A DNA stretch of 64,000 nucleotides from a virus (taxonomy: Duplodnaviria > Heunggongvirae > Uroviricota > Caudoviricetes). Position 1 is the stretch's first letter, and each line of letters starts with the position of its first letter. The notes beneath the pieces were generated by a model. That model was not told where the DNA came from, did no database searches, and saw nothing but the letters and a program-made list of their open reading frames with translations. The stretch is from IMG/VR virus record IMGVR_UViG_3300008107_000202; one strand, 5' to 3'. Of the stretch, positions 6,972-36,139 are shown piece after piece. The translations under genes were made by a program, and so were the position numbers.

Positions 6972-7361
6972 CTATTCTATCATGACTTTCTTGTTTGTCA
7001 AGTAGTTCCAGACTACTATTTGTAACTTTTTGTTTCTAGCAGTTTCAATCATGTTGCGAGTGCCAGGACTTTTTTCATCCCACAATGCAATAAGACCTTG
7101 TGCTACATTTGCCATTTGCGAATTGCGAACATGACCAGCACCTTTGAAGAATTTACCGTTAGGATACCAGTCAGCAGGATACTTGTCAACTGGAATTTGT
7201 CGCATTTCTGCAAACAACTCACCGACACGATCTGCTCCGCGAGCACAACCAGAGACTACTTCCGTGATTTTACCATAACGCTGCTCGAAGTCAAGCACTG
7301 CTGCTTTGCACTGTCGAACTTGCTCTGGTACGTCACGACTACCTGCGATGATTACTTTCAT
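6972..7361 (-). CDS. SLOG-family Rossmann protein (DUF2493/YspA-like)
   Basis: MKVIIAGSRD ... VVSGCARGADRVGE, a close match to the DUF2493 consensus. Confidence 0.65.
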   Translation of the reverse strand: MKVIIAGSRDVPEQVRQCKAAVLDFEQRYGKITEVVSGCARGADRVGELFAEMRQIPVDKYPADWYPNGKFFKGAGHVRNSQMANVAQGLIALWDEKSPGTRNMIETARNKKLQIVVWNYLTNKKVMIE

Positions 7362-9462: not shown

Positions 9463-10002
9463 TCAAGCAAATCTAGCAAACTCGCCATACACATTCATTG
9501 CGGCAGCACAATACGCAGAGTGAGCAGATTCCTTGTCAGCAAAGTAGCCGAGGTGATGAATAACACCATTGATTGATATACATGATTTCCATTTTGATTT
9601 ACGTTTATCAAAATATACACCTTTGTATCCGCTAGTATTGTTACTTCCTAATTTCTGATTACAGTTATTTTGCATACGTGTTGCAATCCTGAGATTTGAG
9701 ATTCGATTGTCCAGCTTGTTGCAGTTAATATGATCGGTATCGTATCCGTCAGGAGCATTTATGATCAATCTGTGCATCAATATTTTTTGCCAACTACCGT
9801 CAGATTTCCTTACATCCGTAGCAGCGTATCCACTATTGAAATACCAGTTGTACTTTTCAACCAATGGAATGCTAACAATACCAATAACTGTTTCATAACC
9901 TTTTGTTAAAGGAACAATTGCTATGTCTTCACATATTTTAACTTGTCTTAGTTTCATAAATACTCCTGTAATGCTAAATACTGTTATTACTATACTTAAC
10001 AC
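9463..10002 (-). CDS. HNH endonuclease with C-terminal AP2 DNA-binding domain
   Basis: DTDHINCNKLDNRISNLR (HNH) and YKGVYFDKRKSKWKSCISINGVIHHLGYF (AP2). Confidence 0.7.
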   Translation of the reverse strand: MLSIVITVFSITGVFMKLRQVKICEDIAIVPLTKGYETVIGIVSIPLVEKYNWYFNSGYAATDVRKSDGSWQKILMHRLIINAPDGYDTDHINCNKLDNRISNLRIATRMQNNCNQKLGSNNTSGYKGVYFDKRKSKWKSCISINGVIHHLGYFADKESAHSAYCAAAMNVYGEFARFA

Positions 10003-10950: not shown

Positions 10951-11760
10951 ATGAACATTCGTAATATTGGTCGTACTCTTGCAATCGCTCTGATTGCTAT
11001 TTCTGCTGCTGCTTGTACTCGTGTCGAAACGGGTGAAGTTGGTCTGCGTGTTGACATGTCGAAACAGGTACAGATGGGTGAACTGATGCCCGGTAGCTGG
11101 AACCAGACTCTTGTTGGTGATGTGCTGACGTTCCCTGTGCGAGACATTGGTGGTAGTCTTGAAGACAAACGTCCGCTTACCAAAGATGATGTTGCACTGA
11201 AGCAAGTTGACCTGTCGTATGTATACGGTGTTAGTCCTACCGCTGTTGCTGAACTTTGGACTAAGCAACCACGCTCGTTTCACTTTGTAGATACCAAGTC
11301 AGGTGACACGTTCCTGATGGCAGTTCGAATGCAAACTCTCGTTAACAACGCCCTCTATGAAGCTGTTCGCAAGTACGGCACCAAAGAAGTTAACGACAAG
11401 CGACAAGCAATTGAACAAGATGTAAACGACATCGTTGCTCGAACTCTGAAGAACGACAAGCTCGAAGGTGTGTTGACACTGACTAGTGTACAAGTTCGTG
11501 CAATTGATCTTCCTGACAACATTCGTGACAGTGCAGCAGAAGTTGTGCGTTCACAGAATATGCTTGCTGTGAAAGCCAACGAAGTTGCGATTGCTGAAAA
11601 AGAAGCCGAACGTATGCGTGCTCTGAGTGCTAACTCTGGTCAGTCGATTGCATACATGGACGCACAAGCTCGGTTGAATATCTCTGAGGCTGTGAAGCTC
11701 GGTAAGGTTTCGACTATCGTCGTGCCGCACGACTTCAAGGGTTTCGTGAACGTTAAGTAA
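10951..11760 (+). CDS. SPFH/band-7 (HflK/prohibitin-like) lipoprotein
   Basis: Signal peptide with lipobox AAAC, then an SPFH-like core (GEVGLRV...TKDDVAL..VDLSYVYGV). Confidence 0.45.
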   Translation: MNIRNIGRTLAIALIAISAAACTRVETGEVGLRVDMSKQVQMGELMPGSWNQTLVGDVLTFPVRDIGGSLEDKRPLTKDDVALKQVDLSYVYGVSPTAVAELWTKQPRSFHFVDTKSGDTFLMAVRMQTLVNNALYEAVRKYGTKEVNDKRQAIEQDVNDIVARTLKNDKLEGVLTLTSVQVRAIDLPDNIRDSAAEVVRSQNMLAVKANEVAIAEKEAERMRALSANSGQSIAYMDAQARLNISEAVKLGKVSTIVVPHDFKGFVNVK

Positions 11761-15794: not shown

Positions 15795-17950
15795 CACTTA
15801 AATACTGGATTTGGGATATTGAAACGTACCCTAACTGTTTCACCATCAGCATCATTCGTCAAGACGGTAAGCACCTTCGTTCTTTCGAGTGCAGTCGTCG
15901 GAAGAATGATTTCGCCAAAATTCGCACCTGTGTGGAATATCTCGAAGAAAACGATGCAGTCATGGTCGGTTTCAACAACCTGGGATTCGACTATCCTGTC
16001 CTGCATGGTCTACTGCTGCATCCTGGCGTTGACCAAATGTCAGGTCTTGGTGTAGCAAAGCTGGCGTATAAGCTAGCTCAGGCACAGATTGATTCAACCA
16101 AGCAAGGTTTCCCTAAGACCGTTCCTGTGTACGACTGGATTGTTCCCCAGGTAGATTTGTATAAGATTTGGCACTTCGACAACAAGGCCAAGGCTACAGG
16201 TCTGAAGATGCTTGAGTTTAACATGCGCTCAGACAATATTGAAGACCTTCCGTATGCTGTCGGCACCGAACTGGAAGACCATGAGATTGATGTGTTGATT
16301 CATTACAACCAGCACGATATCAAGGAAACTCTGAAGTTCTTCGGTCATAGTCTTACTCAAATTCACTTCCGTGAAGAACTGACTGCTAAGTATGGTCGCA
16401 ATTTCATGAACCATAACGACACGAAGATCGGTAAAGACTACTTCATCATGGAGCTAGAGAAGCAAGGTGTGAAGTGCTATATCAAGCAAAACGGTAAGAC
16501 TGCGCCTGTACAAACTCGTCGTCCTTACATCAATATCGCAGACTGCTTGTTTGATTACTATGACTTCAAGCGTCCTGAGTTCATTGCAATTCTGGAATGG
16601 TTCAAGCACCAACGCATTCGTGAAACCAAAGGTGTGTTTGCTGATATTGCAGAGCATCGTCTTGGTGAAGTTGCGAAGTATGCGAAGATGCGTACCAAAC
16701 GTCAACGTTATCCAATGAAGCCTAGTGAGATTGTAGAAAACCTGTTCAAGAATGAGTATCCCTGCGGATGGATTGACGAAGTAGAACTGAAGCAGAAACT
16801 CAAGGGTGAGTTCAAGAAGAGTTACTGGAAGTGCTGGAACGTGGCAGACAACCTGAACGTGGTAGTTGATGGTTTTCAATTCGACTTTGGTACAGGTGGT
16901 ATTCACGGTAGCCTAGAGTTCACGCTGGTGGAAGCTGACAGTGAATACGAGATTGTAGATGCTGACGTTAGCTCAATGTATCCTAATCTGGCTATCTCCA
17001 ATGACGTTTACCCTGAACACCTTGGTATTGAATTCTGTACGATTTACAAAGCAGTGTATGAAATGCGTAAGTCCTACAAGAAAGGTACACCTGAGAACCT
17101 GATGCTCAAGCTGGCTCTGAACGGTGTTTACGGTGACTCGAATAACCAGTACAGTCCGTTCTATGATCCTAAGTACACGATGACGATTACGATTAACGGA
17201 CAGCTCACACTCTGTCTACTTGCTGAAAAGCTGATGACAATCGAAGGTCTGCAACTGATCCAAGTCAACACTGACGGTGTTACTGTGAAGATTCCTCGTG
17301 CCAAGCGTGCTGAGTACAACGCAGTATGTGAAGCATGGCAAAAGCAAGTTAAGCTTGAGCTTGAGTATGCGGAGTATTCGAAGATGTTCATTAGAGATTG
17401 CAATAACTATATCGCGGTGTACACTAACGGTAAGGTCAAGCGTAAAGGTGTGTATCAGTACGAAGACCTGGGTTGGCACCAAAACCAGGGCGGTCTGGTT
17501 ATCGCCAAGGCTGCTGAAGCTGCAATGGTTCATGGTACAGATATCGAAGAGTTCATCAAGGCGCATACTGACAAGTATGACTTCCTGATGCGTACAAAGG
17601 TGCCTCGTAGCTCAAGTCTATATCTTGAGAAAGATGAACTGGATGCTGAAGACAAACCTGTCAGAGTAAAGCAACAGAATATCTGTCGATACTACGTGTC
17701 AAAGTCTCCTGACAGTGGTAAGCTGATCAAGGTCATGCCTCCACTACCGAAGAAACCCGATGACGTTCGTGAAATCGGCATCGAGTCAGCTTGGAAGGTG
17801 AAGACTTGCAACAACATGCTTGACTTCGACGGACAGATCGACTATGCTTACTACGTTCATGAAGCAAGAAAGCTTCTGGTACCACCTGTGTTTACTCGTG
17901 AAGAACTTGCCAAGATGGCAGAAGGGAAAGACGATGAGTTTGAAGAATGA
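15791..17950 (+). CDS. DNA polymerase, family B (3'-5' exonuclease plus polymerase)
   Basis: Exo I WDIETYP; motif A DADVSSMYPNLAI; motif B KLALNGVYGDS; motif C QVNTDGVTV. Confidence 0.85.
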   Translation: MTLKYWIWDIETYPNCFTISIIRQDGKHLRSFECSRRKNDFAKIRTCVEYLEENDAVMVGFNNLGFDYPVLHGLLLHPGVDQMSGLGVAKLAYKLAQAQIDSTKQGFPKTVPVYDWIVPQVDLYKIWHFDNKAKATGLKMLEFNMRSDNIEDLPYAVGTELEDHEIDVLIHYNQHDIKETLKFFGHSLTQIHFREELTAKYGRNFMNHNDTKIGKDYFIMELEKQGVKCYIKQNGKTAPVQTRRPYINIADCLFDYYDFKRPEFIAILEWFKHQRIRETKGVFADIAEHRLGEVAKYAKMRTKRQRYPMKPSEIVENLFKNEYPCGWIDEVELKQKLKGEFKKSYWKCWNVADNLNVVVDGFQFDFGTGGIHGSLEFTLVEADSEYEIVDADVSSMYPNLAISNDVYPEHLGIEFCTIYKAVYEMRKSYKKGTPENLMLKLALNGVYGDSNNQYSPFYDPKYTMTITINGQLTLCLLAEKLMTIEGLQLIQVNTDGVTVKIPRAKRAEYNAVCEAWQKQVKLELEYAEYSKMFIRDCNNYIAVYTNGKVKRKGVYQYEDLGWHQNQGGLVIAKAAEAAMVHGTDIEEFIKAHTDKYDFLMRTKVPRSSSLYLEKDELDAEDKPVRVKQQNICRYYVSKSPDSGKLIKVMPPLPKKPDDVREIGIESAWKVKTCNNMLDFDGQIDYAYYVHEARKLLVPPVFTREELAKMAEGKDDEFEE

Positions 17951-18119
17951 AGGTCCAATCTGTAGTGCAGACGGTTGTTCTCGTCGTGAACCGTGTGGTT
18001 TTGCCTGTCGTGATGAAGGCAACTTTGATGTTCCAATTTGGAAACAGCGAGTAGACCAACTGATTGAAGAAGTGCTAGACTTTGAACCTGTTGTATTCAA
18101 AGAAAAAGGTAAAAAGTGA
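17934..18119 (+). CDS. small Cys-rich protein overlapping the polymerase 3' end
   Basis: ATG 17934 in-frame within the ORF 17820..18119. Confidence 0.3.
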   Translation: MSLKNEGPICSADGCSRREPCGFACRDEGNFDVPIWKQRVDQLIEEVLDFEPVVFKEKGKK

Positions 18120-18346
18120 ACATTCGATACAAATGGTTTTACAAAAATCATCGTGGTGAACTTGAAGAAGTTACAGGTCAACGAGTACCGTTTTCTGAAA
18201 TTGAAAACATTAATGTTTCGTATTCCATAGATGGTCTTGGGTTCAAGACAGTTGGAATGGCACTAGATGCCATGCAAAAGTTTATTGACAACGGTAACTG
18301 GAGTGGGAACACTCCTGCCATGTTAATTCTAGTTCACGGGAGGTAA
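18116..18346 (+). CDS. hypothetical protein
   Basis: ORF only. Confidence 0.35.
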   Translation: MNIRYKWFYKNHRGELEEVTGQRVPFSEIENINVSYSIDGLGFKTVGMALDAMQKFIDNGNWSGNTPAMLILVHGR

Positions 18347-18349
18347 CAA

Positions 18350-19174
18350 ATGACTATTACAACTAAACCTTATGGTTTCAAGCACTGGAAGTTCCCAGGT
18401 GGTGAAATCGGTGTAAAGCTTGATCCTGAGTGGTTGACGCATCCTCACGATGTTCCACTTGCAGCTACCATTGAACATCGTGGTCTGGTTGATCATGAAG
18501 AGCTTTTCATTATCATGAATCTGTGTGATGCAATCGCTCGTGCTACTGCAAATCGAAAGAATCGTGAACCTGTATATCTGGACATGCCTTACCTTCCTTA
18601 TTCTCGTCAAGACCGAATGTGTCATCCGGGTGAATCTTTTGCACTTGCTGTTTTCTTGCGTGCAATTCCATCCTACGTTCGGTTGATTACAACGGATGTT
18701 CATAGTGACGTTTATGCAAATATCAATAGCTCTGAAAAACCTTACATCCAAAACATTGGTCAAAACACTGTTGCATTTGAAACGGTGAAGAAGCACTTCA
18801 AGGCAGACTGGCTCGTCGGACCCGATGAAGGTTCTACCAGAAAGATCAACGTACTTTCGCGTGAAACCTTTGTACCGTATGTCACGCTGACTAAGACTCG
18901 TAAAGAGGGTAAGGTTCACCATGAAGACTTGACACCTGATACTCTTTCAGGTAAAGTCCTGATTGTGGACGATATTGGAGACGGTATGGCGACTTTTATT
19001 AGTGCAGCACAGATGCTGAAAGCTACACAGCCTCGTATCACTAAACTTGGAGTGATGGTCACACATGGTATCTTTTCAAAAGGATTGGACATTCTAAACG
19101 GTATGTTCGATGTTGTTTACACCTATAATCTGATGAATCCAGATGTTGCAGACCATCCTCTTCTGGCAAAATAG
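18350..19174 (+). CDS. ribose-phosphate pyrophosphokinase (Prs)-like
   Basis: YLPYSRQDR (Prs PYxxYARQDR motif) and PRPP-binding VLIVDDIGDGMAT. Confidence 0.6.
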   Translation: MTITTKPYGFKHWKFPGGEIGVKLDPEWLTHPHDVPLAATIEHRGLVDHEELFIIMNLCDAIARATANRKNREPVYLDMPYLPYSRQDRMCHPGESFALAVFLRAIPSYVRLITTDVHSDVYANINSSEKPYIQNIGQNTVAFETVKKHFKADWLVGPDEGSTRKINVLSRETFVPYVTLTKTRKEGKVHHEDLTPDTLSGKVLIVDDIGDGMATFISAAQMLKATQPRITKLGVMVTHGIFSKGLDILNGMFDVVYTYNLMNPDVADHPLLAK

Positions 19175-19724
19175 CACTGTCCCAGGATATGAAGTTTCTT
19201 CTTGCGGTAAGATTCGTTCTGTAAATAGACTAGTAAGCAAAACAAACGGTAATATTGCTCTTCTAACCGGAAAAGAGCTTAAAACGCAAATAGACAGAAA
19301 TGGTTATGTGCGAGCAAGATTGTCTCATTCTAACAAAAAAATCACGATCAGAATGCATCGTGAAGTAGCTATTGTGTTCATACCTAATCCAGAAAACAAA
19401 CCTCAAGTTAACCATAAAGACGGTAACAAACAAAACAACAGTGTCAGTAATCTTGAGTGGTGTGACAACTCTCAAAATCAAATTCATGCAATAGAATCAG
19501 GACTAAAAACAATTTCGTATGCAGAAAAAGCACCTAGAACCAAATTCAAAGTGCTTGTATTTGATAAGTCTGGAAACCACAAGCTCACATTGTGTGGCAA
19601 TAAAGAAATGAAACTGCATGGGTTCGACTTCAGACTTGTCAATGCTTGTCTGCAAGGTAAACGAAAATATCACAAGGAACATTACTTCAAGTCTCAACCA
19701 CTTGACAACACTCAACCTCAGTGA
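19143..19724 (+). CDS. HNH homing endonuclease (NUMOD4 plus HNH_3)
   Basis: GYEVSSCGKIRS; VNHKDGNKQNNSVSNLEWCDNSQN. Confidence 0.8.
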   Translation: MLQTILFWQNSTVPGYEVSSCGKIRSVNRLVSKTNGNIALLTGKELKTQIDRNGYVRARLSHSNKKITIRMHREVAIVFIPNPENKPQVNHKDGNKQNNSVSNLEWCDNSQNQIHAIESGLKTISYAEKAPRTKFKVLVFDKSGNHKLTLCGNKEMKLHGFDFRLVNACLQGKRKYHKEHYFKSQPLDNTQPQ

Positions 19725-19760
19725 TACAGTTCTGCATCGCAATAACGAAAGGAAAAGTAA

Positions 19761-21284
19761 ATGTTTCAACCTAACCCAATTCTCGCTGCTGACTTCTACA
19801 AAATCGGTCACGTTTTCCAGTATCCGCTTGGTACCAGCGAAATCTATTCCAACCTGACTGCTCGTTCGAACAAGCGTGCTCCGCTTGCAAACGGTCGATA
19901 CATTGACAAGGTTGTATTTGTTGGTTTGCAAGTATTCCTGATGCAATTCCTGCAAGAGCAATTCCAAAAGCTTTTCTTTGATAAGCCAAAGGCTGATGTT
20001 GTTGCTGAGTTCAATCGTCGTAATGATGGTGCTCTCGGTCCTGGCTCGGTTGATAGCTCGCACATTGCTGCGCTGCACGACCTGGGTTACCTGCCTCTGG
20101 AAATCAAGGCACTTCCTGAAGGCTCGCTCGTTCCGATGGGTGTCCCGATGTTGACTGTTCACAATACTCTGCCTGAGTTCTACTGGCTGACGAACTTCAT
20201 CGAAACTGCTCTCAGTGCTGAAATCTGGAAGATTATTACTTGCGCAACTGTCGCGTTCGAATACCGTAAACTGCTTGAGCGTTGGGCTAAGCGAACTGGT
20301 TCTCCGAAGGATTTCGTTCTGTGGCAAGGTCACGACTTCTCGATGCGTGGTATGTCGGGTATCTCCGATGCTGCTCAATCTGGCATGGGCCACCTATTCA
20401 GCTTCCTTGGTACTGACACGATCCCTGCAATCGAAGCTATCGAAAAGTTCTACAACGGTCTTGCAACCTTCGTCGGTGGTTCGGTTCCTGCAACTGAACA
20501 CAGTGTGATGTGTGCTGGTGGCATGGAAGATGAGAAGGAAACCATTCGTCACCTGATTCAAGATGTTTATCCGAGTGGTGTTGTGTCGGTTGTTTCTGAC
20601 ACCTGGGACTTCTTCAAGGTTGTTACTGAAACTGCTACTGAACTCAAGGATGTTATCCTGAATCGTCAACCGAATGCACTTGGTCTTGCCAAGGTTGTGT
20701 TCCGTCCTGACAGTGGTAATCCTGCTGACATTCTCTGTGGTGATCCGAAGGCTCCTGCTGGTAGTCCTGAGTCGAAGGGTGCTGTGGAATGTCTGTGGGA
20801 AATCTTCAGTGGTACTGAGACTGAAACTGGTCACAAGCTTCTGAATCAACGTGTGGGTCTGATCTACGGTGATAGCATCACGCTCGAACGTGCTGAAGAA
20901 ATCATGCAGCGTTTGCACCTGAAGGGATTCGCTTCCGCTAACGTGGTGTTCGGTATCGGTAGCTTCACGTATCAGTACCTGACTCGTGACACTTTCGGCA
21001 TGGCAATGAAGGCTACTTCTGCTGTGGTGAATGGTCAACGTCGCGCACTGTTCAAAGACCCCAAGACTGACGATGGTCTGAAGCGTAGTGCTCGCGGTCT
21101 GCTGAAGGTTCAAGAGCTTGACAACGGTAACTTTGTCCTGCACAATGACTGCACGGTTGAACAAGAACAGACTGGTGCTTTGCAGACGGTGTTCCTCAAC
21201 GGTCGAATCACCAAGATGTTTACCATCGATGAGATTCGAGCTAAGGTCAACACTGCTGTTGACAAGTATCTGCTGACGGTATAA
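19761..21284 (+). CDS. nadV: nicotinamide phosphoribosyltransferase (NAMPT/NadV)
   Basis: The N-terminus ILAADFYKIGHVFQYP and overall length are typical of NAMPT. Confidence 0.85.
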   Translation: MFQPNPILAADFYKIGHVFQYPLGTSEIYSNLTARSNKRAPLANGRYIDKVVFVGLQVFLMQFLQEQFQKLFFDKPKADVVAEFNRRNDGALGPGSVDSSHIAALHDLGYLPLEIKALPEGSLVPMGVPMLTVHNTLPEFYWLTNFIETALSAEIWKIITCATVAFEYRKLLERWAKRTGSPKDFVLWQGHDFSMRGMSGISDAAQSGMGHLFSFLGTDTIPAIEAIEKFYNGLATFVGGSVPATEHSVMCAGGMEDEKETIRHLIQDVYPSGVVSVVSDTWDFFKVVTETATELKDVILNRQPNALGLAKVVFRPDSGNPADILCGDPKAPAGSPESKGAVECLWEIFSGTETETGHKLLNQRVGLIYGDSITLERAEEIMQRLHLKGFASANVVFGIGSFTYQYLTRDTFGMAMKATSAVVNGQRRALFKDPKTDDGLKRSARGLLKVQELDNGNFVLHNDCTVEQEQTGALQTVFLNGRITKMFTIDEIRAKVNTAVDKYLLTV

Positions 21285-21408
21285 ACTAGTTTTGTGATGT
21301 GTGAGAGTGCAGGTGCAGTCAAGACTCCCGCTTAACCGGAGACATTGACAAGTAACGTGAGTTACGGAGCAGAGTCCACACATCACTTCTTAACATAAAG
21401 GAAATCAT

Positions 21409-21801
21409 ATGAGTAAGTTTGAGCAAAACTTTAAAGCTAAATATGGTGATACAGGTGAAGCATTTGTCCAAAAGTGGGTTAATGGGCTTGAAAGTGGCAA
21501 GATTAAGCGAATCGGTGGAGCACTAAATAACGGTAACGGTATGTGCTGCCTTGGTCTTGCATGTGATATCCTTGCTGAAGATGGATTGGTGTCAAAGAAA
21601 GTTTTGGCATCTGGTACCGTTCACTACAGCAATGAGCATGAAATGCCTACCGATACTGTGCAAAAAGTAATCGACAGTCTTCTTAATAGACACACTGATT
21701 GCACACACCTTGCGTCTAGAAATGATGAAGGTCGTACTTTCAAGAAAACCGCAGCAGTCATTCGTACTGCAATGAAAAAGCAAGGTATTATCCTCAAATG
21801 A
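21409..21801 (+). CDS. hypothetical protein
   Basis: ORF only. Confidence 0.4.
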   Translation: MSKFEQNFKAKYGDTGEAFVQKWVNGLESGKIKRIGGALNNGNGMCCLGLACDILAEDGLVSKKVLASGTVHYSNEHEMPTDTVQKVIDSLLNRHTDCTHLASRNDEGRTFKKTAAVIRTAMKKQGIILK

Positions 21802-22025
21802 GACGTATCTGCGAAGTCGCTGCTGAAATCATCAACGTATGGAAAAAGCCGTACTTTGGTGCAGTACCATACTTGCAAGCAATGTTGTGTCTAGTCGATA
21901 AAAACGACAAGTACGGACTTGACAGCGCAGAGTCAATCGTGCAATACTTTCTTGGTAATGCAAACACTTTCCGTGGCGAAGATGCTCGCCGTCTTAAACT
22001 CGAACTGAAGGAACTAATCAAATGA
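21798..22025 (+). CDS. hypothetical protein
   Basis: ORF only. Confidence 0.35.
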   Translation: MRRICEVAAEIINVWKKPYFGAVPYLQAMLCLVDKNDKYGLDSAESIVQYFLGNANTFRGEDARRLKLELKELIK

Positions 22026-22312
22026 AAAACCTGTCCGCTAACTTTACCGCTGGTCAACTCGTGGCACTCAGTGCCATGTTTGACACGTTTCCCGATAACG
22101 TTGAAGCTATTGCTCAGTTCTATCTGGCTAACATGGCAAAAGTGGTTGCATTAGCAATGAAGGATCGCATTGAATCCGGCGAACCTCTTTCTGATGAATG
22201 GATGGGTGTGTTGCTGTCCTCGATGCTTGCTGACTCCGCTAAGCAGAAGCCTGTTGCGATGAGTGAAGGTCAAGTCGAATTGCTGAAGACGATGGATATC
22301 GATAACCTGTAA
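22022..22312 (+). CDS. hypothetical protein
   Basis: ORF only. Confidence 0.35.
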   Translation: MKNLSANFTAGQLVALSAMFDTFPDNVEAIAQFYLANMAKVVALAMKDRIESGEPLSDEWMGVLLSSMLADSAKQKPVAMSEGQVELLKTMDIDNL

Positions 22313-22320
22313 GGGTAAAA

Positions 22321-22743
22321 ATGAACATCAAAGACATGATTGATAAACCGTTCATGCTTATCATCCGGGGTCTTCCCGGCTCCGGTAAGAGTACGTTTGC
22401 TGAACTGATTTCACACATGACAGTTGAACCCATTGTCATTGCCGAAGCTGATCAATACTTTGTCGAAAAGTTTGATGGTGTTTTTGAACCTCGACGTATT
22501 GCAGATGCTCATGCTTGGTGTCGTCAGAAAGTCCAACGTGCAATTGATGACAGGAATAATGTTATTGTGTCCAACACTTTCACCCGTGAGTGGGAATACG
22601 ATGAATACTTGACGATGGCATCAAGAGCAAACTACAATATCTTTGTCATTACGATGAACAACATCCACGGTAATAAGTCCACTCACGGTGTTCCTGAAGA
22701 AACTGTCACCAAGATGCGTGATAGGTTCGAACACAGTCTCTGA
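22321..22743 (+). CDS. small P-loop kinase (polynucleotide 5'-kinase-like; alternatively NR-kinase-like)
   Basis: Walker A IIRGLPGSGKSTFA; 140 aa. Confidence 0.5.
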   Translation: MNIKDMIDKPFMLIIRGLPGSGKSTFAELISHMTVEPIVIAEADQYFVEKFDGVFEPRRIADAHAWCRQKVQRAIDDRNNVIVSNTFTREWEYDEYLTMASRANYNIFVITMNNIHGNKSTHGVPEETVTKMRDRFEHSL

Positions 22744-22880
22744 TGAAAAAGTTCATCTTTACACTCCTGATCGGTGTCTTTGGGGCATTGACAGGAGTTC
22801 TTTTCACTGTATCATACCTCGATCCTGGCATTCGATTAATGATCGGTTTCTTCTTAGCTAACCTCGGAGTCTACTACTAA
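22743..22880 (+). CDS. small membrane protein (45 aa)
   Basis: ATGA overlaps on both sides; hydrophobic. Confidence 0.3.
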   Translation: MKKFIFTLLIGVFGALTGVLFTVSYLDPGIRLMIGFFLANLGVYY

Positions 22881-23731
22881 TGAACTACCCGTCCCTCAAG
22901 CAGATGCAGCAACTCGTCGCAGATAAGCTTGCTATTCAGAAGCTTTATGGTGACGATCTGGTAATGTTTAAGTATTCACGCAAGGCTATGTTCGACTACA
23001 TGTGGTTCAAGCGACCTGAACTCATGGAGTGTCGTGGTCATGTGTACCGTCTTTCGACTGGTGAGCGTGTGGTACATGCTCCCCGTAAGTCGTTCAATTA
23101 TCTTGAGAATGATTGGTGGAAAGATGTTCCATTGAACACCGAAGTCCGTATCGACAAAAAGTTTAATGGTTATATGGCATGTGTAACCTTGGTGGATGGT
23201 GACTGGTTGATTACGACTACTGGTAGTTTCGATAGTGAATACGTCAAGCATGCGCAGAATATGCTGACTGGTCATCCTGCTCTTGAAAACGAAGACAACA
23301 TTGATTGCACACTGGTATTTGAAATCTGCGACAGTAAGTTTGATCCACACATTGTTGAGGAACAAGATGGTGCTCACTATCTTGGTTCTCGCATTTCTAA
23401 CGGAAATTGGCTTGCTTATTCGACTTCCAATACTGTGATTGGAATTACCCTCGGTGAAGCAATTCAACTTGCTGAGCGTGATCACGGTGAAGGTTTCATG
23501 GTCTATCAGCTACAGGGTGATCCTCTGTACAATCGTCCATGTAAGCTGAAGAGTCCGTATTACATTGGTAAGAAAATGCTGATGCGTGCTACTCCGTATT
23601 TTAAGATTGATCGACTACCAAAAATGTGGAAAAATGCACCATATTTGATTCAAGATCATTATCTGTGGTCAGATTGGTGTGAACTACCCGAACAAGAACG
23701 TCGTCTATTTTTGGAGAATCACTATGGATAA
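22880..23731 (+). CDS. Rnl2-like RNA ligase (nucleotidyltransferase)
   Basis: Motif I DKKFNGYMA (KxNG), motif IV EGFMVYQ, motif V CKLKS; the N-terminus resembles T4 Rnl2. Confidence 0.5.
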   Translation: MNYPSLKQMQQLVADKLAIQKLYGDDLVMFKYSRKAMFDYMWFKRPELMECRGHVYRLSTGERVVHAPRKSFNYLENDWWKDVPLNTEVRIDKKFNGYMACVTLVDGDWLITTTGSFDSEYVKHAQNMLTGHPALENEDNIDCTLVFEICDSKFDPHIVEEQDGAHYLGSRISNGNWLAYSTSNTVIGITLGEAIQLAERDHGEGFMVYQLQGDPLYNRPCKLKSPYYIGKKMLMRATPYFKIDRLPKMWKNAPYLIQDHYLWSDWCELPEQERRLFLENHYG

Positions 23732-24308
23732 ATACACCGTGATCGTAAGCGTAATGCGTCAGCTAATTGTTAAGCATTTTCATAATGCTCCATGCCGACC
23801 TGTAGGTAGCAGCTACATCATGCAATGTGTAAACAATGATGTAGACATGATCGTTGCCTATCCTGACTTTGGACTGAAGGATGAATTCGAGGTTACTCAA
23901 GACCTTGGGTGGGAATTCAACGGTTCGAAGATGGATGACGGTACAGAGTTTGTGTCGTTCAAAACTGACATTGATGGTGTTGTGGGCAACTTCGTCTTCG
24001 TCATCAGTCGAACCGAGTATGATATGTTTGGTCACGCTGCTGACGTATGCCGACTTCTGCACGAGTCAGGTGTGACGCTTGACAAGCCTCTGCGTTGTGA
24101 TGTACACTCGATGCTGCGTCAGATGATGACATGGGAAGAATTTCAAACATACAAACATTTAAAAAGGAATGCACATGAAATGGTTCACAAGCGACCTGCA
24201 CTTCTCGCATCGAAATATTGTACGATTCACGAATCGGGGACGGGATACTTCGCAAGATTCTCACGATATGTGGTTGGTAAACTTACTCAACTCTTTCGTT
24301 CGACCTGA
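23724..24308 (+). CDS. hypothetical protein; 3' end overlaps the next gene by ~140 nt
   Basis: ORF; the overlap is read directly. Confidence 0.3.
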   Translation: MDKYTVIVSVMRQLIVKHFHNAPCRPVGSSYIMQCVNNDVDMIVAYPDFGLKDEFEVTQDLGWEFNGSKMDDGTEFVSFKTDIDGVVGNFVFVISRTEYDMFGHAADVCRLLHESGVTLDKPLRCDVHSMLRQMMTWEEFQTYKHLKRNAHEMVHKRPALLASKYCTIHESGTGYFARFSRYVVGKLTQLFRST

Positions 24309-24771
24309 AGACACTCTGTATCACCTGGGTGACTTCTCGTTTGCGCGAGACAAGCGAGACACCCGAGCTATTGTAGATGATCTGCACTGCAACGACATTC
24401 GATTGTTCAAGGGTAACCACGACCGATTCGAAGATCTGTTGTGGCTCAAGCAAGAATGCAGTAATGTAACTCGTGTCAAAGACTACGAAGAAATTCGGAT
24501 TGGTGATAAGAGCGTAGTTCTATTTCACTTTCCAATCGCATCATGGCATAAACAAGGTCATGGTAGCTGGCACCTTCATGGTCATTGTCACGGTAACCTC
24601 AAGCCTGAGTTCTCTCAAGGTAAAGTGCTAGACGTTGGTTTGGATAATGCTTTCAATCTGTACGGTGTACATCGACCGTTTGCAGAGGAAGACATTGTTC
24701 GATACATGGAAAACCGAGACGTTCGAATCAATGATCATCATAAGGATTACACTAATGCAAATCACAGCTAA
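24169..24771 (+). CDS. calcineurin-like metallophosphoesterase
   Basis: SDLHFSH, HLGDF, GNHD and HGHxH motifs. Confidence 0.75.
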   Translation: MHMKWFTSDLHFSHRNIVRFTNRGRDTSQDSHDMWLVNLLNSFVRPEDTLYHLGDFSFARDKRDTRAIVDDLHCNDIRLFKGNHDRFEDLLWLKQECSNVTRVKDYEEIRIGDKSVVLFHFPIASWHKQGHGSWHLHGHCHGNLKPEFSQGKVLDVGLDNAFNLYGVHRPFAEEDIVRYMENRDVRINDHHKDYTNANHS

Positions 24772-25666
24772 AGTTCTACTCAAAACCAAGAACGTTTTCA
24801 CAGGAGACGTTGCAACCACCTTCGAACTAGAGTATCCTCGGTTCATCCATAGCGAGTTCATGACTCACCGGATGTTCAGTCGCAATGCTGCTAGTTCGAG
24901 GGCTATTCCTGTTGCTAAGACAATCGAAATGGTTCGCTCTGATCCTGCGATGCCGGTGCATTGGGGTAAGAATCAACCTGGGATGCAGGCTAATGAAGAG
25001 CTACAAGGAAATGAACTTGCAATGGTTAAGGGTGATTGGATTAATTCAGCAGAACAGGCTTCTATTGTTGCTGAACGCATGTCGCATTACCAAGCACACA
25101 AACAAATCGTTAACAGAATCCTAGAGCCCTACGTGTGGATGAAGGTTGTCGTTACCGCTACCGAGTGGAATAACTTCTGGTGGTTGCGTGATCACAAGGA
25201 TGCTCAACCTGAAATCCGACAGCTTGCTAAGGTTATGCACAAAGCGTACAATCAAGCTAAAGCTATGAATCTGTACGATGGTGAATGGCACCTGCCTTAC
25301 CTCGATCTTGTTCGTGGTACAGGTATGAATCTGAAACTGCATTACTGCATCGGTAATGAAGAACTTAGCACTGAAGATGCTAAGAAAGTTTCTGCTAGTC
25401 TATGTGCCCAAGTATCTTACCGTAAGCTAGACTTCAGCGTAGAAAAAGCTAAAGTAATCTTTGATCGACTAATCGAGTCTGAGCCTGTACATGCTAGCCC
25501 TGTAGAGCACCAATTGCTTGTACGAAATCCTAAAGAATATCCAATCCCTTCTGCTAGGACGCAAGGATGGACGCACATGGACTTCGACGGTAACTACTGG
25601 TCAGGTAATATCAAAGGGTATATTCAGTATCGTCAACTGATTCCTAATCACGTAAAGCGAGGCTAA
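24755..25666 (+). CDS. thyX: flavin-dependent thymidylate synthase ThyX
   Basis: ThyX signature HRMFSRNAASSR; start ATG 24755 chosen, overlapping the previous stop. Confidence 0.8.
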   Translation: MQITAKVLLKTKNVFTGDVATTFELEYPRFIHSEFMTHRMFSRNAASSRAIPVAKTIEMVRSDPAMPVHWGKNQPGMQANEELQGNELAMVKGDWINSAEQASIVAERMSHYQAHKQIVNRILEPYVWMKVVVTATEWNNFWWLRDHKDAQPEIRQLAKVMHKAYNQAKAMNLYDGEWHLPYLDLVRGTGMNLKLHYCIGNEELSTEDAKKVSASLCAQVSYRKLDFSVEKAKVIFDRLIESEPVHASPVEHQLLVRNPKEYPIPSARTQGWTHMDFDGNYWSGNIKGYIQYRQLIPNHVKRG

Positions 25667-26014
25667 ATGGCTAGAGTAAAACGCAATCGACCTAAAGTGA
25701 CGGACCATCAGCTGATCAAGCTGATTTCCGCTCACAGTAAATACCATGAGTATGAAGTGCGTGATATTCTACGTGCAATGGTATACATTACTCAATCTGA
25801 ACTAGTGAAGGGTAATACTGTTCAGATTCGTGGACTAGGTACGTGGGCAACCTTTCTGATTCCAGAGAGGTCGTGGTACAATGCTCATCTGGATTTGCAC
25901 ATGACTAAACCTGAAGAGTATAGAGTCGGGTATCGTTGTGATGCAGACATTAAGGGTGCAGTGAAGAAAGATAGTATTCTCAGGCAGGATATTGAATCGA
26001 AAGGAAGTAAATGA
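25667..26014 (+). CDS. hypothetical protein
   Basis: ORF only. Confidence 0.35.
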   Translation: MARVKRNRPKVTDHQLIKLISAHSKYHEYEVRDILRAMVYITQSELVKGNTVQIRGLGTWATFLIPERSWYNAHLDLHMTKPEEYRVGYRCDADIKGAVKKDSILRQDIESKGSK

Positions 26015-26541
26015 ACGTAAAAGACCCACCGTATTGGATGACAGCAGAACCACCCAAGGATGATGATATCCTAATCAATGATCCTCATGATGTATTCAAA
26101 GCAAAAGAACTACCTTCGTTTGTCTATCGTGCAGCACACCATGTAATCAATACCGGTTATCTAAACACCGTAGAGTTCTTCAAGGATTTGACTGAGCTTG
26201 AGTCATCGTTCCTTTGTGAAATGTGTAAGCTTAACGCTTCCATTCTTATGGGTGAAGCTACTGCTGTAAACCAGTCTCAACTTCATACGTTTGCAATTGT
26301 ACTAGAGTCGAGCAGGCTTACCGTACAGATGCTACACGCAGGTATCGGTGAAACAACAATCGAAAAGTCAAAACTGATTGACAGATTCACCAACCTGTAT
26401 AGAATGGCAGTTGCTCATCATCAGGCTCTTGTCAATGATGCAGTCTGTCACTATGAAAAGTTCGACATTCTAGCAGAACCTTCTGAGGGTAGACTTTTCT
26501 CTGACAAAAAACCCTCTGAACCTGACGGGAAAGGGGGTTGA
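26011..26541 (+). CDS. hypothetical protein
   Basis: ORF only. Confidence 0.35.
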   Translation: MNVKDPPYWMTAEPPKDDDILINDPHDVFKAKELPSFVYRAAHHVINTGYLNTVEFFKDLTELESSFLCEMCKLNASILMGEATAVNQSQLHTFAIVLESSRLTVQMLHAGIGETTIEKSKLIDRFTNLYRMAVAHHQALVNDAVCHYEKFDILAEPSEGRLFSDKKPSEPDGKGG

Positions 26542-26544
26542 CAG

Positions 26545-26730
26545 ATGCCCAAAAAAAAGAAACAATCTGATCCATTCGCTGAAGACTTTGACCTGTACGA
26601 CGATACTTTCGAAAAAGACGCAGTACAGCAGTTGACAAATCGAACAAGACAGCGTACATTCTACGAAGACACTTTCGATCAATCTAACCAAGAGGTAAAT
26701 TCACTATGGAAAACAAGCGGTTCGTGGTAA
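26545..26730 (+). CDS. small acidic protein
   Basis: ORF only. Confidence 0.3.
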   Translation: MPKKKKQSDPFAEDFDLYDDTFEKDAVQQLTNRTRQRTFYEDTFDQSNQEVNSLWKTSGSW

Positions 26731-26857
26731 AGTTCAACAACGGTGTGTGGAAGGCTTTCGACACTCATACTTTCACCGACATGGAACTCTTTCGTTTAAA
26801 GCGTGAAGCTGATGAAAAGGTCAAGTCAGTCAATGATCGTATTGCTCGGGAAAAGCA

Positions 26858-27061
26858 ATGACTAAGTTCGTAATCGGTGGTCGCTATAACTGGATTGGTC
26901 AACCTGAGCGGTTGATCTATCTTGGTGATAACTTCAGTGGTAATGGCTTCTGGCATCAATTCGCTAAGGTTGATAAACCTGATGTTGTTTGGTGTGAAGT
27001 CAAGGGTAACCAACTTGATCAATTCGAAGAAACCAAAGACCCTACAGTTGACAAGGTTTAA
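26858..27061 (+). CDS. hypothetical protein
   Basis: ORF only. Confidence 0.3.
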   Translation: MTKFVIGGRYNWIGQPERLIYLGDNFSGNGFWHQFAKVDKPDVVWCEVKGNQLDQFEETKDPTVDKV

Positions 27062-27111
27062 GTTCTAAGCTATAGTTCATTTCTCTGTTCAACAACCTCT
27101 AGGAGATTCAA

Positions 27112-27279
27112 TTGAAAGAAATTCATATCGTTCGTAACGCTAGCATCCCGCGTCTGTTCAACGTTGTCGAGGCTGACTTCGAAAACGAATCGGTTCGCAC
27201 GCTGTTCGAACGTCTGGAATACGATGACGCTGTGATGAAGAAGGAAGCAGTGGAAGCTCTGATGACGGAGTGTGCGTAA
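27112..27279 (+). CDS. small protein (TTG start after SD AGGAGA); preferred over the antisense ORFs 27123..27398
   Basis: RBS plus start; the rest of the block is on the plus strand. Confidence 0.3.
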   Translation: MKEIHIVRNASIPRLFNVVEADFENESVRTLFERLEYDDAVMKKEAVEALMTECA

Positions 27280-27553
27280 TGCAAGGCACGTTCACTGAGC
27301 GAATCGTTCGACCGAAGAACGCCAAGATGCGTCGGGAGCAGCGTGACCCAAAGCGTGACAAGCGCAATGATCGTGACTTCTCTCGGCAGCGTGAACAAAA
27401 GCGAGGGTGGAATTCTGAATCAACCGAATGAAATACCTCAGAATTGGCCTTTCCCTACTTACAAAGGGGTCTTGTTGCAGCAGGTTAGAAAGCGTGATAC
27501 ACTAGATCATGTTCCTGAATTCGACAAACTCTCAGACAAAGTAGGAGATACCA

Positions 27554-28404: not shown

Positions 28405-28857
28405 ATGCGCAAAGGTGAAATGCTCGACAAAGCGATTCTGATTGCAACCAATGCTCACGCTGGTCAATTCGACAAGGGTGGTCGTCCGTACATCCTGCAT
28501 CCTCTTGCTGTGATGCACATTCTGAACACTGAAATCGAAGAGTTGAACAGTGCAGCAGTTCTTCATGATGTAATCGAAGACACCAAAGTTACATATGCCG
28601 ATCTTCGTGCTGCAGGTATTAACGAGTCAGTAATTGCAATTGTCCGAATTCTTACGAAAGTTCCCGGTGAAACCTACGATGAATACAAGGCTCGTGTTAT
28701 GGAAAGCCCCGATGCCATGAGGGTTAAGCTTGCGGACTTGACACACAACAGCGATATCCGTAGACTCAAGGGTGTGTCTGAAAAAGACATTGTACGGATG
28801 GCTAAGTATCATGCTTTCTATCTGGAAATCACCGCTAAGCTGGAAGGAAAATCGTGA
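28405..28857 (+). CDS. HD-domain (p)ppGpp hydrolase (Mesh1/SpoT small alarmone hydrolase-like)
   Basis: AHAGQFDKGGRPYILHPLAV ... AAVLHDVIEDT. Confidence 0.75.
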   Translation: MRKGEMLDKAILIATNAHAGQFDKGGRPYILHPLAVMHILNTEIEELNSAAVLHDVIEDTKVTYADLRAAGINESVIAIVRILTKVPGETYDEYKARVMESPDAMRVKLADLTHNSDIRRLKGVSEKDIVRMAKYHAFYLEITAKLEGKS

Positions 28858-35937: not shown

Positions 35938-36139
35938 GTTGAGTCGTTCTTCTAGTGGCCCAGGAAATGTTCCCGTCTTGTGGACAGAACGCAGGTTCGA
36001 ATCCTGCACGACTCGACACCTTAACTTAGTTCCTAGTTTAACGGCCAAAAACGAAGCCTCTATCCCGTTCGATTCGGGTAATCTGCATGATGGTCGCAGG
36101 GGTTGTATCCAAGGTTCGATTCCTTGGGGAACTAAGTTA
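35938..36139 (+). ncRNA. Structured tRNA-like RNA driven by B-type promoter copy 2: element 1 (35938-36011) with acceptor GAGTCGT/ACGACTC and T-arm GCAGG-TTCGAAT-CCTGC; element 2 (36018-36139) closed by a perfect 15-bp stem and containing two T-arm mimics
   Basis: Stems and T-loops read directly. No plausible ORF, so the overlapping table ORFs were rejected. Confidence 0.35.

Follow-up and report, generated by a model that had tools for sequence, protein, structure and literature searches.

Effectors that cleave RNA, the anticodon nucleases that cut tRNA above all, now count among the common weapons of bacteria against phages, and the Pnkp and Rnl1 proteins of phage T4 are, to our knowledge, the only phage repair answer that has been studied biochemically. 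The T4 pair of Pnk and Rnl1 repairs tRNA-Lys cut by PrrC, according to work cited in a passage of PMC12409363, and the phosphatase of T4 Pnkp is an acylphosphatase domain of the DxDxT type (PMC3592404). The bacterial Pnkp unites a kinase, a Mn2+-dependent binuclear metallophosphoesterase for 2',3'-cyclic ends and a ligase (PMC3675462). Phage ATP-dependent RNA ligases were described to travel with polynucleotide kinases and phosphoesterases, the latter occasionally calcineurin-like (PMC7824862), and a predicted RNA-repair neighbourhood was reported from rV5-like phages, in which a T4-like ligase is joined by a nucleotide kinase and, in some cases, by a calcineurin-like phosphoesterase (PMC9503650). 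The locus described here lies at positions 22321-24771 of a 64,000-nucleotide stretch of phage DNA (IMG/VR record IMGVR_UViG_3300008107_000202), the whole of which is referred to as the window. With moderate confidence, the locus is read as a three-enzyme RNA heal-and-seal pathway, made up of a kinase, a ligase and a metallophosphoesterase, each with a gene of its own; the genes are tightly packed and probably co-translated.

The window comes from the genome of an uncultured, myovirus-like phage with a G+C content of 46%. A megablast search with positions 21400-25700 as the query gave zero matches among 50,697 phage records, and the phage is known from metagenomes only. Among cultured phages, Limnohabitans phage DC31 (genus Pakpunavirus in GenBank) is the nearest to it, at approximately 42-52% protein identity. 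The cassette belongs to a string of + strand genes (21409-26730) whose junctions lie between a gap of 8 nt and an overlap of 17 nt, with the exception of one larger overlap. Positions 22321-24771 hold five open reading frames (ORFs) on the + strand, coding for the kinase, a 45-aa protein, the ligase, a nucleotidyltransferase and the phosphoesterase (Table 1). An earlier annotation, made from the letters of the DNA and referred to as the sequence-only reading, had placed a three-gene cassette here, with kinase, phosphatase and ligase as separate genes. The kinase, ligase and phosphoesterase ORFs indeed occupy that exact span, all on the + strand, as a Pnkp-like split set, but two further ORFs (the 45-aa ORF and the nucleotidyltransferase) lie inside it. 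Because at least 23 metagenomic contigs (ENA, JGI, NCBI and Logan assemblies) carry identical proteins in unchanged order, the ORFs are regarded as real genes and not as assembly artefacts. The catalytic residues of the cassette proteins are unchanged in diverged homologues (30-50% identity). The 45-aa ORF is called on all near-identical contigs, overlaps each neighbour by 1 nt (TGATG on the start side, TAATG on the stop side) and has zero family matches in Pfam or PHROGs. It is missing from the diverged syntenic loci L013 and L015, in which the kinase abuts the ligase, and is specific to this phage's close relatives. A scan of 17900-27500 for promoters and terminators returned counts close to those of shuffled sequence and was uninformative.

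Enzymes of the cassette and the proposed pathway

The kinase matches the Pfam family AAA_33 (8e-13) and, among the PHROGs, phrog_2071 'ATPase' (8.5e-37), with a weaker match to phrog_505 'polynucleotide kinase'. In an alignment of 43 homologues (42-87% identity) the invariant residues are the P-loop R16-G-x-P-G-S-G-K-S-T25 (G17-LPGSGKST-25 in the window), D44, N85-T86 (part of S84-N85-T86 in the window) and H122; R135, in the predicted lid and C-terminal helix, is nearly invariant. D44, the predicted general base, stands where the second strand ends; in the sequence profile it aligns with the Asp of 'NRDD' in Pnkp1. The AlphaFold2 model built from the same alignment is confident (predicted local distance difference test, pLDDT, 87). 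Profile comparison ranks Pnkp1 (1.9e-6) and PSTK (2.1e-6) ahead of T4 Pnk (1.5e-5) and NRK1 (0.045-0.059). Fold comparison gave the same ranking, the nearest folds being polynucleotide and RNA kinases and not nucleoside or small-molecule kinases. The identity as a nicotinamide riboside kinase was rejected on these fold and profile ranks, and the assignment to P-loop kinases of the polynucleotide type, as first proposed, has held. With regard to the phosphoacceptor and nucleoside triphosphate (NTP) Arg residues (equivalents of T4 R38 and R126), no Arg is present three residues past D44 (EADQYF) in the comparison of sequences. From profile and model, the protein is predicted to be a minimal Pnk-type 5' kinase.

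The ligase scores 36.8 bits with PF09511 RNA_lig_T4_1 (curated cut-off 28.3; E 5.1e-9) and also matches phrog_562 (1.1e-30). The Rnl2-type domain PF09414 gave zero matches at E<=0.1, in a search that recovered the second ligase of the window at 8e-27 (see below). The Rnl2-like label given in the sequence-only reading is ruled out by the PF09511 match and by the missing PF09414 match. A family profile of eight homologues (30-51% identity) aligns with T4 Rnl1 (2c5u) at E 1.3e-14, over T4 residues 47-251, and the ligase motifs were recovered one by one. The profile consensus ECRG and kKvfN correspond to ECRG and EKFFN of T4 Rnl1, respectively; motif I (eKvNG; K94-F-N96-G97 in the window) corresponds to TKEDG, motif III (fEic; E148) to FEFV, motif IV (gEGfm; E204-G205) to IEGYV, and motif V (cKlKsp; K222 and K224) to FKIKSD. 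Invariant across the eight homologues are the Rnl1-specific upstream residues R52 and K70, K94/N96/G97, E148, E204/G205 and K222/K224, and K94 is the predicted adenylylation site. The aligned residues of T4 Rnl1 are essential according to published mutagenesis. The protein consists of the nucleotidyltransferase domain and a short C-terminal tail. It ends approximately 45 residues past motif V and therefore lacks the C-terminal domain of T4 Rnl1 (~120 residues); the match stops at T4 residue 251 of 375, and the full-length equivalog TIGR02308 is failed by a wide margin (22 bits, cut-off 242). By profile, the product is classed as an Rnl1-type ligase domain, neither Rnl2-like nor a strict orthologue of T4 RnlA.

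The phosphoesterase gave no match to Pfam even at E<=10, Metallophos (PF00149) and Metallophos_2 (PF12850) included, and no usable match to NCBIfam; for homologues from other contigs, the precomputed matches are 'weak' throughout. It is matched by phrog_547 'phosphoesterase' (2.8e-48) and by Aquifex aq_1665 (PDB 1xm7), at 5e-10 with the single sequence and 8e-17 with the family profile. Alignment of eight homologues (38-67% identity) shows D9-x-H11, G54-D55, G82-N83-H84, H120 and G138-H139-x-H141 to be invariant (numbered from 24169), which is the complete, ordered set of six motifs of the binuclear calcineurin-like metallophosphoesterases. The calcineurin-like identity proposed earlier is thus borne out by the motifs, phrog_547 and 1xm7, but not by the Metallophos search. 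The phosphoesterase fold that had been called different does differ from the DxDxT domain of T4 Pnkp, but belongs to the same superfamily as the metallophosphoesterase of bacterial Pnkp, so that the contrast drawn earlier with the bacterial enzyme was mistaken. The protein is predicted to be an aq_1665-type enzyme that heals 2',3'-phosphate ends. Its true start is at 24169 or, more likely, at 24175, which has AGGA 8 nt upstream and fits the N-termini of the homologues, MK(W/L/I)FTSDLHF. Automatic callers begin the gene at 24268 (167 aa) because they avoid the overlap with the nucleotidyltransferase ORF, and thereby drop the D-x-H motif. Homologues of the three proteins are labelled in GenBank as RNA ligase, as ATPase or putative polynucleotide kinase, and as phosphoesterase.

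In the proposed pathway, the metallophosphoesterase would first open the 2',3'-cyclic phosphate and then strip the phosphate to leave a 2',3'-OH end, acting as both phosphodiesterase and monoesterase in the manner of the Mn2+ module of bacterial Pnkp (PMC3675462). The Pnk-type kinase would next move the gamma-phosphate of an NTP onto the 5'-OH. Finally, the Rnl1-type ligase, charged with adenosine monophosphate (AMP) at K94, would pass the AMP to the 5'-phosphate and seal the ends. The pathway is based on the classes of the enzymes, on active-site residues that are intact and on the conserved linkage of the genes; we infer the order of the steps and the substrate. The likeliest substrate would be tRNA whose anticodon loop was cleaved by a defence nuclease of the host. 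Since T4 Pnk and Rnl1 reverse the damage done by PrrC, the cassette may, by analogy, serve counter-defence as in T4.

Conserved linkage and alternative explanations

Among the 50,697 records of cultured phages, 616 contain matches to the kinase and 615 to the ligase. By host genus, too, the counts are nearly the same (kinase/ligase: Escherichia 198/199, Pseudomonas 173/175, Vibrio 88/83, Klebsiella 36/36, Acinetobacter 24/24, Campylobacter 23/23). Linkage was studied in 80 IMG/VR loci (L020-L099) that were seeded on the ligase only and scanned for 6 kb on either side with family hidden Markov models. The kinase was found within 6 kb of the ligase in 67 of the 80 loci, with a median gap of 20 nt, and the phosphoesterase in 71 (median gap 351 nt), in 68 of them within 1.5 kb; both were present in 59 loci. 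Because shared ancestry inflates linkage, the loci were also clustered at 60% ligase identity, and all three genes are found in 19 of the resulting 25 clusters. The trio occurs in at least five orders, one arrangement being on mixed strands: kinase-ligase-phosphoesterase, phosphoesterase-ligase-kinase, ligase-phosphoesterase-kinase, ligase-kinase-phosphoesterase, and a divergent order in which kinase and phosphoesterase lie on the other strand. In Vibrio phage PS17B-2 the phosphoesterase, ligase and kinase are three contiguous genes, and in the window the junctions of the genes overlap by 1-17 nt. When neighbouring ORFs were clustered without recourse to annotation, the kinase (20 of 25 clusters) and the phosphoesterase (18 of 25) were the top two families, followed by a dCMP-deaminase-like family (10), a cell-wall hydrolase and a Macro-domain family (9 each), and NAMPT-like and PRPP-synthetase-like families (7 each). 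Nearness that survives rearrangement is good evidence of a shared pathway, and the linkage argues for a functional module of kinase, ligase and phosphoesterase.

The Macro-domain protein that recurs beside the ligase (e.g. L059:10357-10836) was not noticed near the cassette of the window; it might process ADP-ribose-1''-phosphate arising from RNA repair, or belong to NARP1-AP. An HD-domain family also recurs beside the ligase, in six of the 25 clusters.

Several points weigh against the heal-and-seal reading. Many of the 80 loci come from few phage lineages, and shared ancestry explains part of the linkage. The C-terminal domain of T4 Rnl1 helps to target tRNA, and without a counterpart of it a tRNA specificity of the ligase cannot be assumed. 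In the literature searched, there is no biochemical study of the split trio and no measured activity of its families. The phosphoesterase family was found in 1296 phage records, about twice the number for the kinase-ligase pair, and it occurs in phages of Staphylococcus, Enterococcus and Streptomyces, which lie outside the genus counts listed for kinase and ligase. Because the family is the broader one, the phosphoesterase is not dedicated to the pathway by its distribution alone. The phosphoesterase profile also left the phosphatase module of Pnkp unmatched in the PDB, where 1xm7 was the only match at E<=0.01.

These last observations also favour the strongest of the alternatives, in which only the kinase and the ligase form a repair pair and the phosphoesterase is an independent enzyme, acting on immune signals or dinucleoside polyphosphates or resembling the lambda phosphatase, that lies nearby through the clustering of early and auxiliary genes. 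Such an enzyme may degrade immune signals derived from cyclic nucleotides or ADP-ribose, or dephosphorylate proteins; in other phages, signalling nucleotides were suggested as targets of calcineurin-like phosphodiesterases (PMC7824862), and the phosphoesterase stands at a greater median distance from the ligase than the kinase does. This explanation is nevertheless considered unlikely. The phosphoesterase keeps within 1.5 kb of the ligase through the various gene orders and is the second-commonest neighbour in the unbiased clustering. In 12 ligase loci it is present with no kinase within 6 kb, so that its link to the ligase is independent of the kinase. Moreover, an ATP-dependent ligase cannot use 2',3'-cyclic phosphate ends without an enzyme of this kind, and no other 3' healer (HAD, 2H or HD-Pnk) is among the Pfam annotations seen for ~12.3-32.7 kb of the window.

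A second alternative is that the cassette serves the phage's own RNA metabolism, in maturation or quality control of the tRNA island or in the repair of damage by the phage's own nucleases, and not counter-defence. The phage carries 13-14 tRNA genes, several of them of unusual length, together with a predicted RNA-binding protein (phrog_850) inside the island, and in Vequintavirus 'nomine' a tRNA cluster lies within 5 kb of the cassette. Yet ARAGORN reports zero introns in the tRNA genes, the island is on the other strand and 15 kb from the cassette, tRNA genes are missing from the examined flanks of many carriers of the trio (e.g. PS17B-2), and T4, the only characterised phage precedent, is a case of counter-defence. 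This use of the cassette is distinctly unlikely.

The third alternative concerns the neighbouring genes. A PRPP-synthetase-like gene (phrog_619 'ribose-phosphate pyrophosphokinase') and an NAMPT-like gene (PF04095, PF18127) lie on the + strand approximately 1 kb upstream of the cassette and are split by an ORF resembling an HNH/NUMOD4 homing endonuclease (18350-19174, 19143-19724 and 19761-21284 for the three ORFs). The two genes look like the Adps/Namat pair for NAD+ reconstitution of NARP1 (bioRxiv 10.1101/2024.02.11.579819). In Pseudomonas phage EM a Macro-domain Adpp gene is situated beside the NARP1-like pair, whereas the pair of the window has none adjoining. T4 Pnkp works on DNA too, and it is conceivable, although highly improbable, that the enzymes repair DNA ends (3'-phosphate/5'-OH nicks) or serve the adjoining NAD+ pathway, with a small molecule (nicotinamide riboside or a derivative of ADP-ribose, for example) as the substrate of the kinase and phosphorylated ADP-ribose as that of the phosphoesterase. 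In favour of this, Pseudomonas phage EM and Vibrio phage PG07 show the NARP1-like pair adjacent to the cassette as well, an extension of NARP1 by a phage phosphatase is known (bioRxiv 10.64898/2026.01.28.702374), and the phosphoesterase has a faint match to PdeM, a ligase-associated DNA-damage enzyme (E 0.005). That match, however, scores 16 bits, far under the cut-off of 150, NAD+ synthesis offers no role for an Rnl1-type ligase, the phosphatase associated with NARP1 is a Macro-domain protein and no metallophosphoesterase (bioRxiv 10.64898/2026.01.28.702374), and NAMPT-like and PRPP-synthetase-like genes occur within 6 kb in only 7 of the 25 ligase clusters. Compared with the 20 and 18 clusters of kinase and phosphoesterase, the last count makes the NAD+ link secondary, and an extension of NARP1 was judged unlikely on this count and on the Macro-domain nature of the known phosphatase. 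The three-enzyme heal-and-seal pathway is plausible, and better supported than any of these alternatives.

The nucleotidyltransferase and other genes of the window

The ORF between the ligase and the phosphoesterase was overlooked in the sequence-only reading. Its product belongs to phrog_15166, a PHROG without assigned function, and no Pfam or NCBIfam model is usable for it; three of 30 family members give marginal matches to PF01909 (best E 0.021). Five close relatives were found in a search of 5.8 billion proteins, and 45 relatives in an exhaustive profile search of 1.8 billion representatives. G28, D39, D41, N89 and H128 are invariant in 30 aligned members, and S29 is present in at least 90% of them. 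The sequence V-G-S, nine residues, D-V-D is the signature of the Pol-beta nucleotidyltransferases (hG[GS]-x9-13-Dh[DE]h), placed on an alpha-beta-alpha-beta fold. The AlphaFold2 model is of moderate quality (pLDDT 63 overall, 65-88 in the core of approximately residues 1-148), and its best fold match is GrpB. Signature and model together assign the protein to the Pol-beta-superfamily nucleotidyltransferase fold. No third Asp or Glu is invariant; N89 (in the predicted strand 86-93) and H128 are, and D84 is only mostly conserved. Catalytic competence is uncertain because the third invariant carboxylate is missing.

Positions 24175-24308 are dual-coding (134-140 nt), as the nucleotidyltransferase ORF reads into the phosphoesterase gene in another frame. 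The last ~45 residues of the nucleotidyltransferase are predicted to be disordered and are absent from distant homologues; the conservation of VHKRPALL in this tail mirrors the W-F-T-S-D-L-H-F-S-H motif of the phosphoesterase, and the overlap of the two genes is only 4-35 nt in homologues. By this comparison, the ORF in the window has lost its ancestral stop and gained an out-of-frame read-through tail. The order kinase-ligase-nucleotidyltransferase-phosphoesterase is kept in the diverged syntenic loci L013 and L015, and the nucleotidyltransferase-phosphoesterase pair in L012 and L016. Locus L017 contains the nucleotidyltransferase and only a ~220-nt fragment of the phosphoesterase, with no kinase or ligase, and in L014 the nucleotidyltransferase is near a DNA ligase. 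DC31 lacks the gene, as do all of the 80 loci seeded on the ligase, and structural relatives of the protein occur in T7-like phages, for example LKA1 and JG068. A constant place of the nucleotidyltransferase in the cassette is ruled out by its absence from DC31 and the 80 loci and by its presence without kinase and ligase in L017. It is viewed as a clade-specific insertion, for which a role in repair is possible and the link to repair weak.

The comparison closest at hand, and an attractive model, is RlaP (PF10127), which extends damaged 3' ends of RNA by one or two nucleotides ahead of ligation (PMC12776372). Both are small Pol-beta nucleotidyltransferases encoded beside an RNA ligase. Unlike RlaP, the protein of the window has GrpB as its best fold, an invariant Asn in the candidate strand and no conserved third carboxylate, and its relatives also occur in phages without an RNA ligase or beside a DNA ligase. 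Membership in RlaP is ruled out, PF10127 matching neither the window protein nor 29 relatives. In an RlaP-like step with a weak link to the pathway, the nucleotidyltransferase might replace nucleotides lost at the 3' end. That it is an RlaP-independent accessory of RNA repair, rebuilding such losses (e.g. after wobble-base excision of the RloC type) before sealing, is quite unlikely; if true, the cassette of this clade would be a four-enzyme system that reverses otherwise 'repair-proof' tRNA damage. The nucleotidyltransferase is the only potentially new element of the cassette.

A second RNA ligase is encoded 9 kb upstream of the cassette, beside a primase-helicase. It scores 197.9 bits with TIGR02306 (cut-off 151; E 2e-58) and matches PF21189 (1.3e-30; residues 6-99, the N-terminal OB domain), PF09414 (8e-27; residues 179-344) and phrog_968 (2e-89). 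Residues 3-352 align with Naegleria NgrRnl (5cot) at E 2.8e-69, end to end and including the OB domain, with EKMDGSS at the K-x-D-G motif of the window protein and VKLDGSS in NgrRnl. By these matches, the Rnl5-like label given earlier was well chosen and the protein is classed as a bona fide Rnl5. In difference to NgrRnl and DraRnl, it is phage-encoded and situated beside replication genes, apart from the healing enzymes. The same type of ligase is present in Pakpunaviruses (219 Pseudomonas phage records). It is a separate, second ligase, probably non-redundant, that would probably seal nicks in duplex RNA; several ligases of different classes in one phage are common (PMC7824862). A protein of the SPFH/Band 7 family, unusual for a phage, is encoded just upstream of this ligase (10951-11760, +; PF01145, 8.6e-19).

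The large tRNA island of the sequence-only reading was recovered, with 13 tRNA genes, and is regarded as context and not as a demonstrated part of the cassette; the tie between island and cassette proposed in that reading, in a counter-defence against anticodon nucleases, is conjectural. Four HNH endonuclease ORFs on the - strand (665-1165, 3061-3507, 6393-6854 and 9463-10002), one with an AP2 domain, are found among the tRNA genes and suggest traffic of homing endonucleases in the island. An ORF inside the island (4659-6050, -; 463 aa) matches phrog_850 'RNA-binding protein' (1.9e-141) and contains DUF2828 and DUF7788; kinship of the DUF2828 protein with TROVE/Ro60 was rejected, with no match at E<=10 and no sequence match in the PDB. 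Several tRNAs are of unusual length, namely Cys (86 nt, 480-565), Met(cat) (90 nt), Thr(tgt) (90 nt) and Leu(caa) (75 nt), the coordinates of this group being 480-565, 3521-3595, 4465-4554 and 6870-6959 on the - strand, and some have low Rfam scores (31.7-36.5 bits). These could contain insertions, or be decoy or nuclease-resistant variants. A tRNA-Asn reported by ARAGORN at 580-658 (-) is below the gathering score for report by Rfam, and a tRNA-like element found by Rfam at 35941-36015 (+; 38.9 bits), far from the island, is unreported by ARAGORN. The island is adjoined by a gene for a YspA/SLOG-family protein (6972-7361, -; PF10686, 7.7e-10), and an HD_4 phosphohydrolase gene lies downstream of the cassette (28405-28857, +; phrog_990, 4.9e-62); both families are tied to nucleotide-signal metabolism.

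Table 1. Features of the window, with functions as predicted from the evidence given
Feature	Position	Strand	Evidence
P-loop 5'-kinase of polynucleotide-kinase type, standalone, 140 aa	22321-22743	+	Profile, fold and invariant residues
Hydrophobic ORF, probably membrane, 45 aa	22743-22880	+	Called on all near-identical contigs
Rnl1-type ATP-dependent RNA ligase, 283 aa	22880-23731	+	PF09511, phrog_562, T4 Rnl1 alignment
Pol-beta-superfamily nucleotidyltransferase-fold protein, 194 aa	23724-24308	+	phrog_15166, motif, fold
Calcineurin-like binuclear metallophosphoesterase, 198-200 aa	24169 or 24175 to 24771	+	phrog_547, 1xm7, motifs
Rnl5-type (DraRnl/NgrRnl) RNA ligase, 353 aa	12121-13182	+	TIGR02306, PF21189, PF09414, 5cot
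tRNA island, 13 tRNA genes	40-6959	-	ARAGORN, Rfam

Significance and comparison with known systems

The trio is present in more than 600 sequenced phages, including the therapeutic Pakpunaviruses of Pseudomonas and the Vequintaviruses of E. coli. If it is a true heal-and-seal pathway, it would be a widespread counter-defence that may shape the host range on strains with RNA-cutting defences. It would also offer enzymes that are small and can be used apart from one another (140 aa for the kinase, 283 aa for the ligase, 198 aa for the phosphoesterase) as possible reagents, and a handle on substrate specificity without the C-terminal domain of T4 Rnl1. The gain specific to the window is modest; it is a further member of a cassette already noted by computation, solid and unsurprising.

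The logic shared with T4 Pnkp (PseT) and RnlA (gp63) is that of a phage-encoded 5' kinase, a remover of the 3' phosphate and an Rnl1-type ligase. In the window, however, the kinase is a free protein, unfused to a phosphatase, the 3' healer is a binuclear metallophosphoesterase in place of the DxDxT domain, and the ligase is without the C-terminal domain of its T4 counterpart. The genes are adjacent in the window, whereas those of T4, pseT and rnlA, are not known to lie side by side. Bacterial Pnkp (that of Clostridium thermocellum and the Pnkp1-Rnl-Hen1 set of Capnocytophaga) performs the same three chemistries, the metal-dependent calcineurin-like phosphoesterase included, but as one polypeptide with a Hen1 partner, in contrast to the three separate genes of the window. 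The ligase module of Pnkp is different from the Rnl1-type ligase, and between the Pnkp phosphatase and the aq_1665 (1xm7)-family phosphoesterase there is no detectable sequence match. A Hen1 methyltransferase is not among the annotated neighbours of the cassette, the window as a whole not having been scanned for Hen1. In Vequintavirus 'nomine', homologues of all three window proteins lie beside two Sir2-like genes, and the neighbourhood described from Escherichia phage V5 and Proteus phage Mydo (Iyer et al. 2022, PMC9503650) is sirtuin-linked, whereas the annotated flanks in the window show no sirtuin, cREC or MazG. There the trio is instead tied to the NARP1-like pair and ThyX, with the nucleotidyltransferase inserted. 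The sequence-only reading was largely correct in what it observed. The cassette is a widespread and previously noticed variant of the heal-and-seal theme, best described as a split Pnkp-like set.

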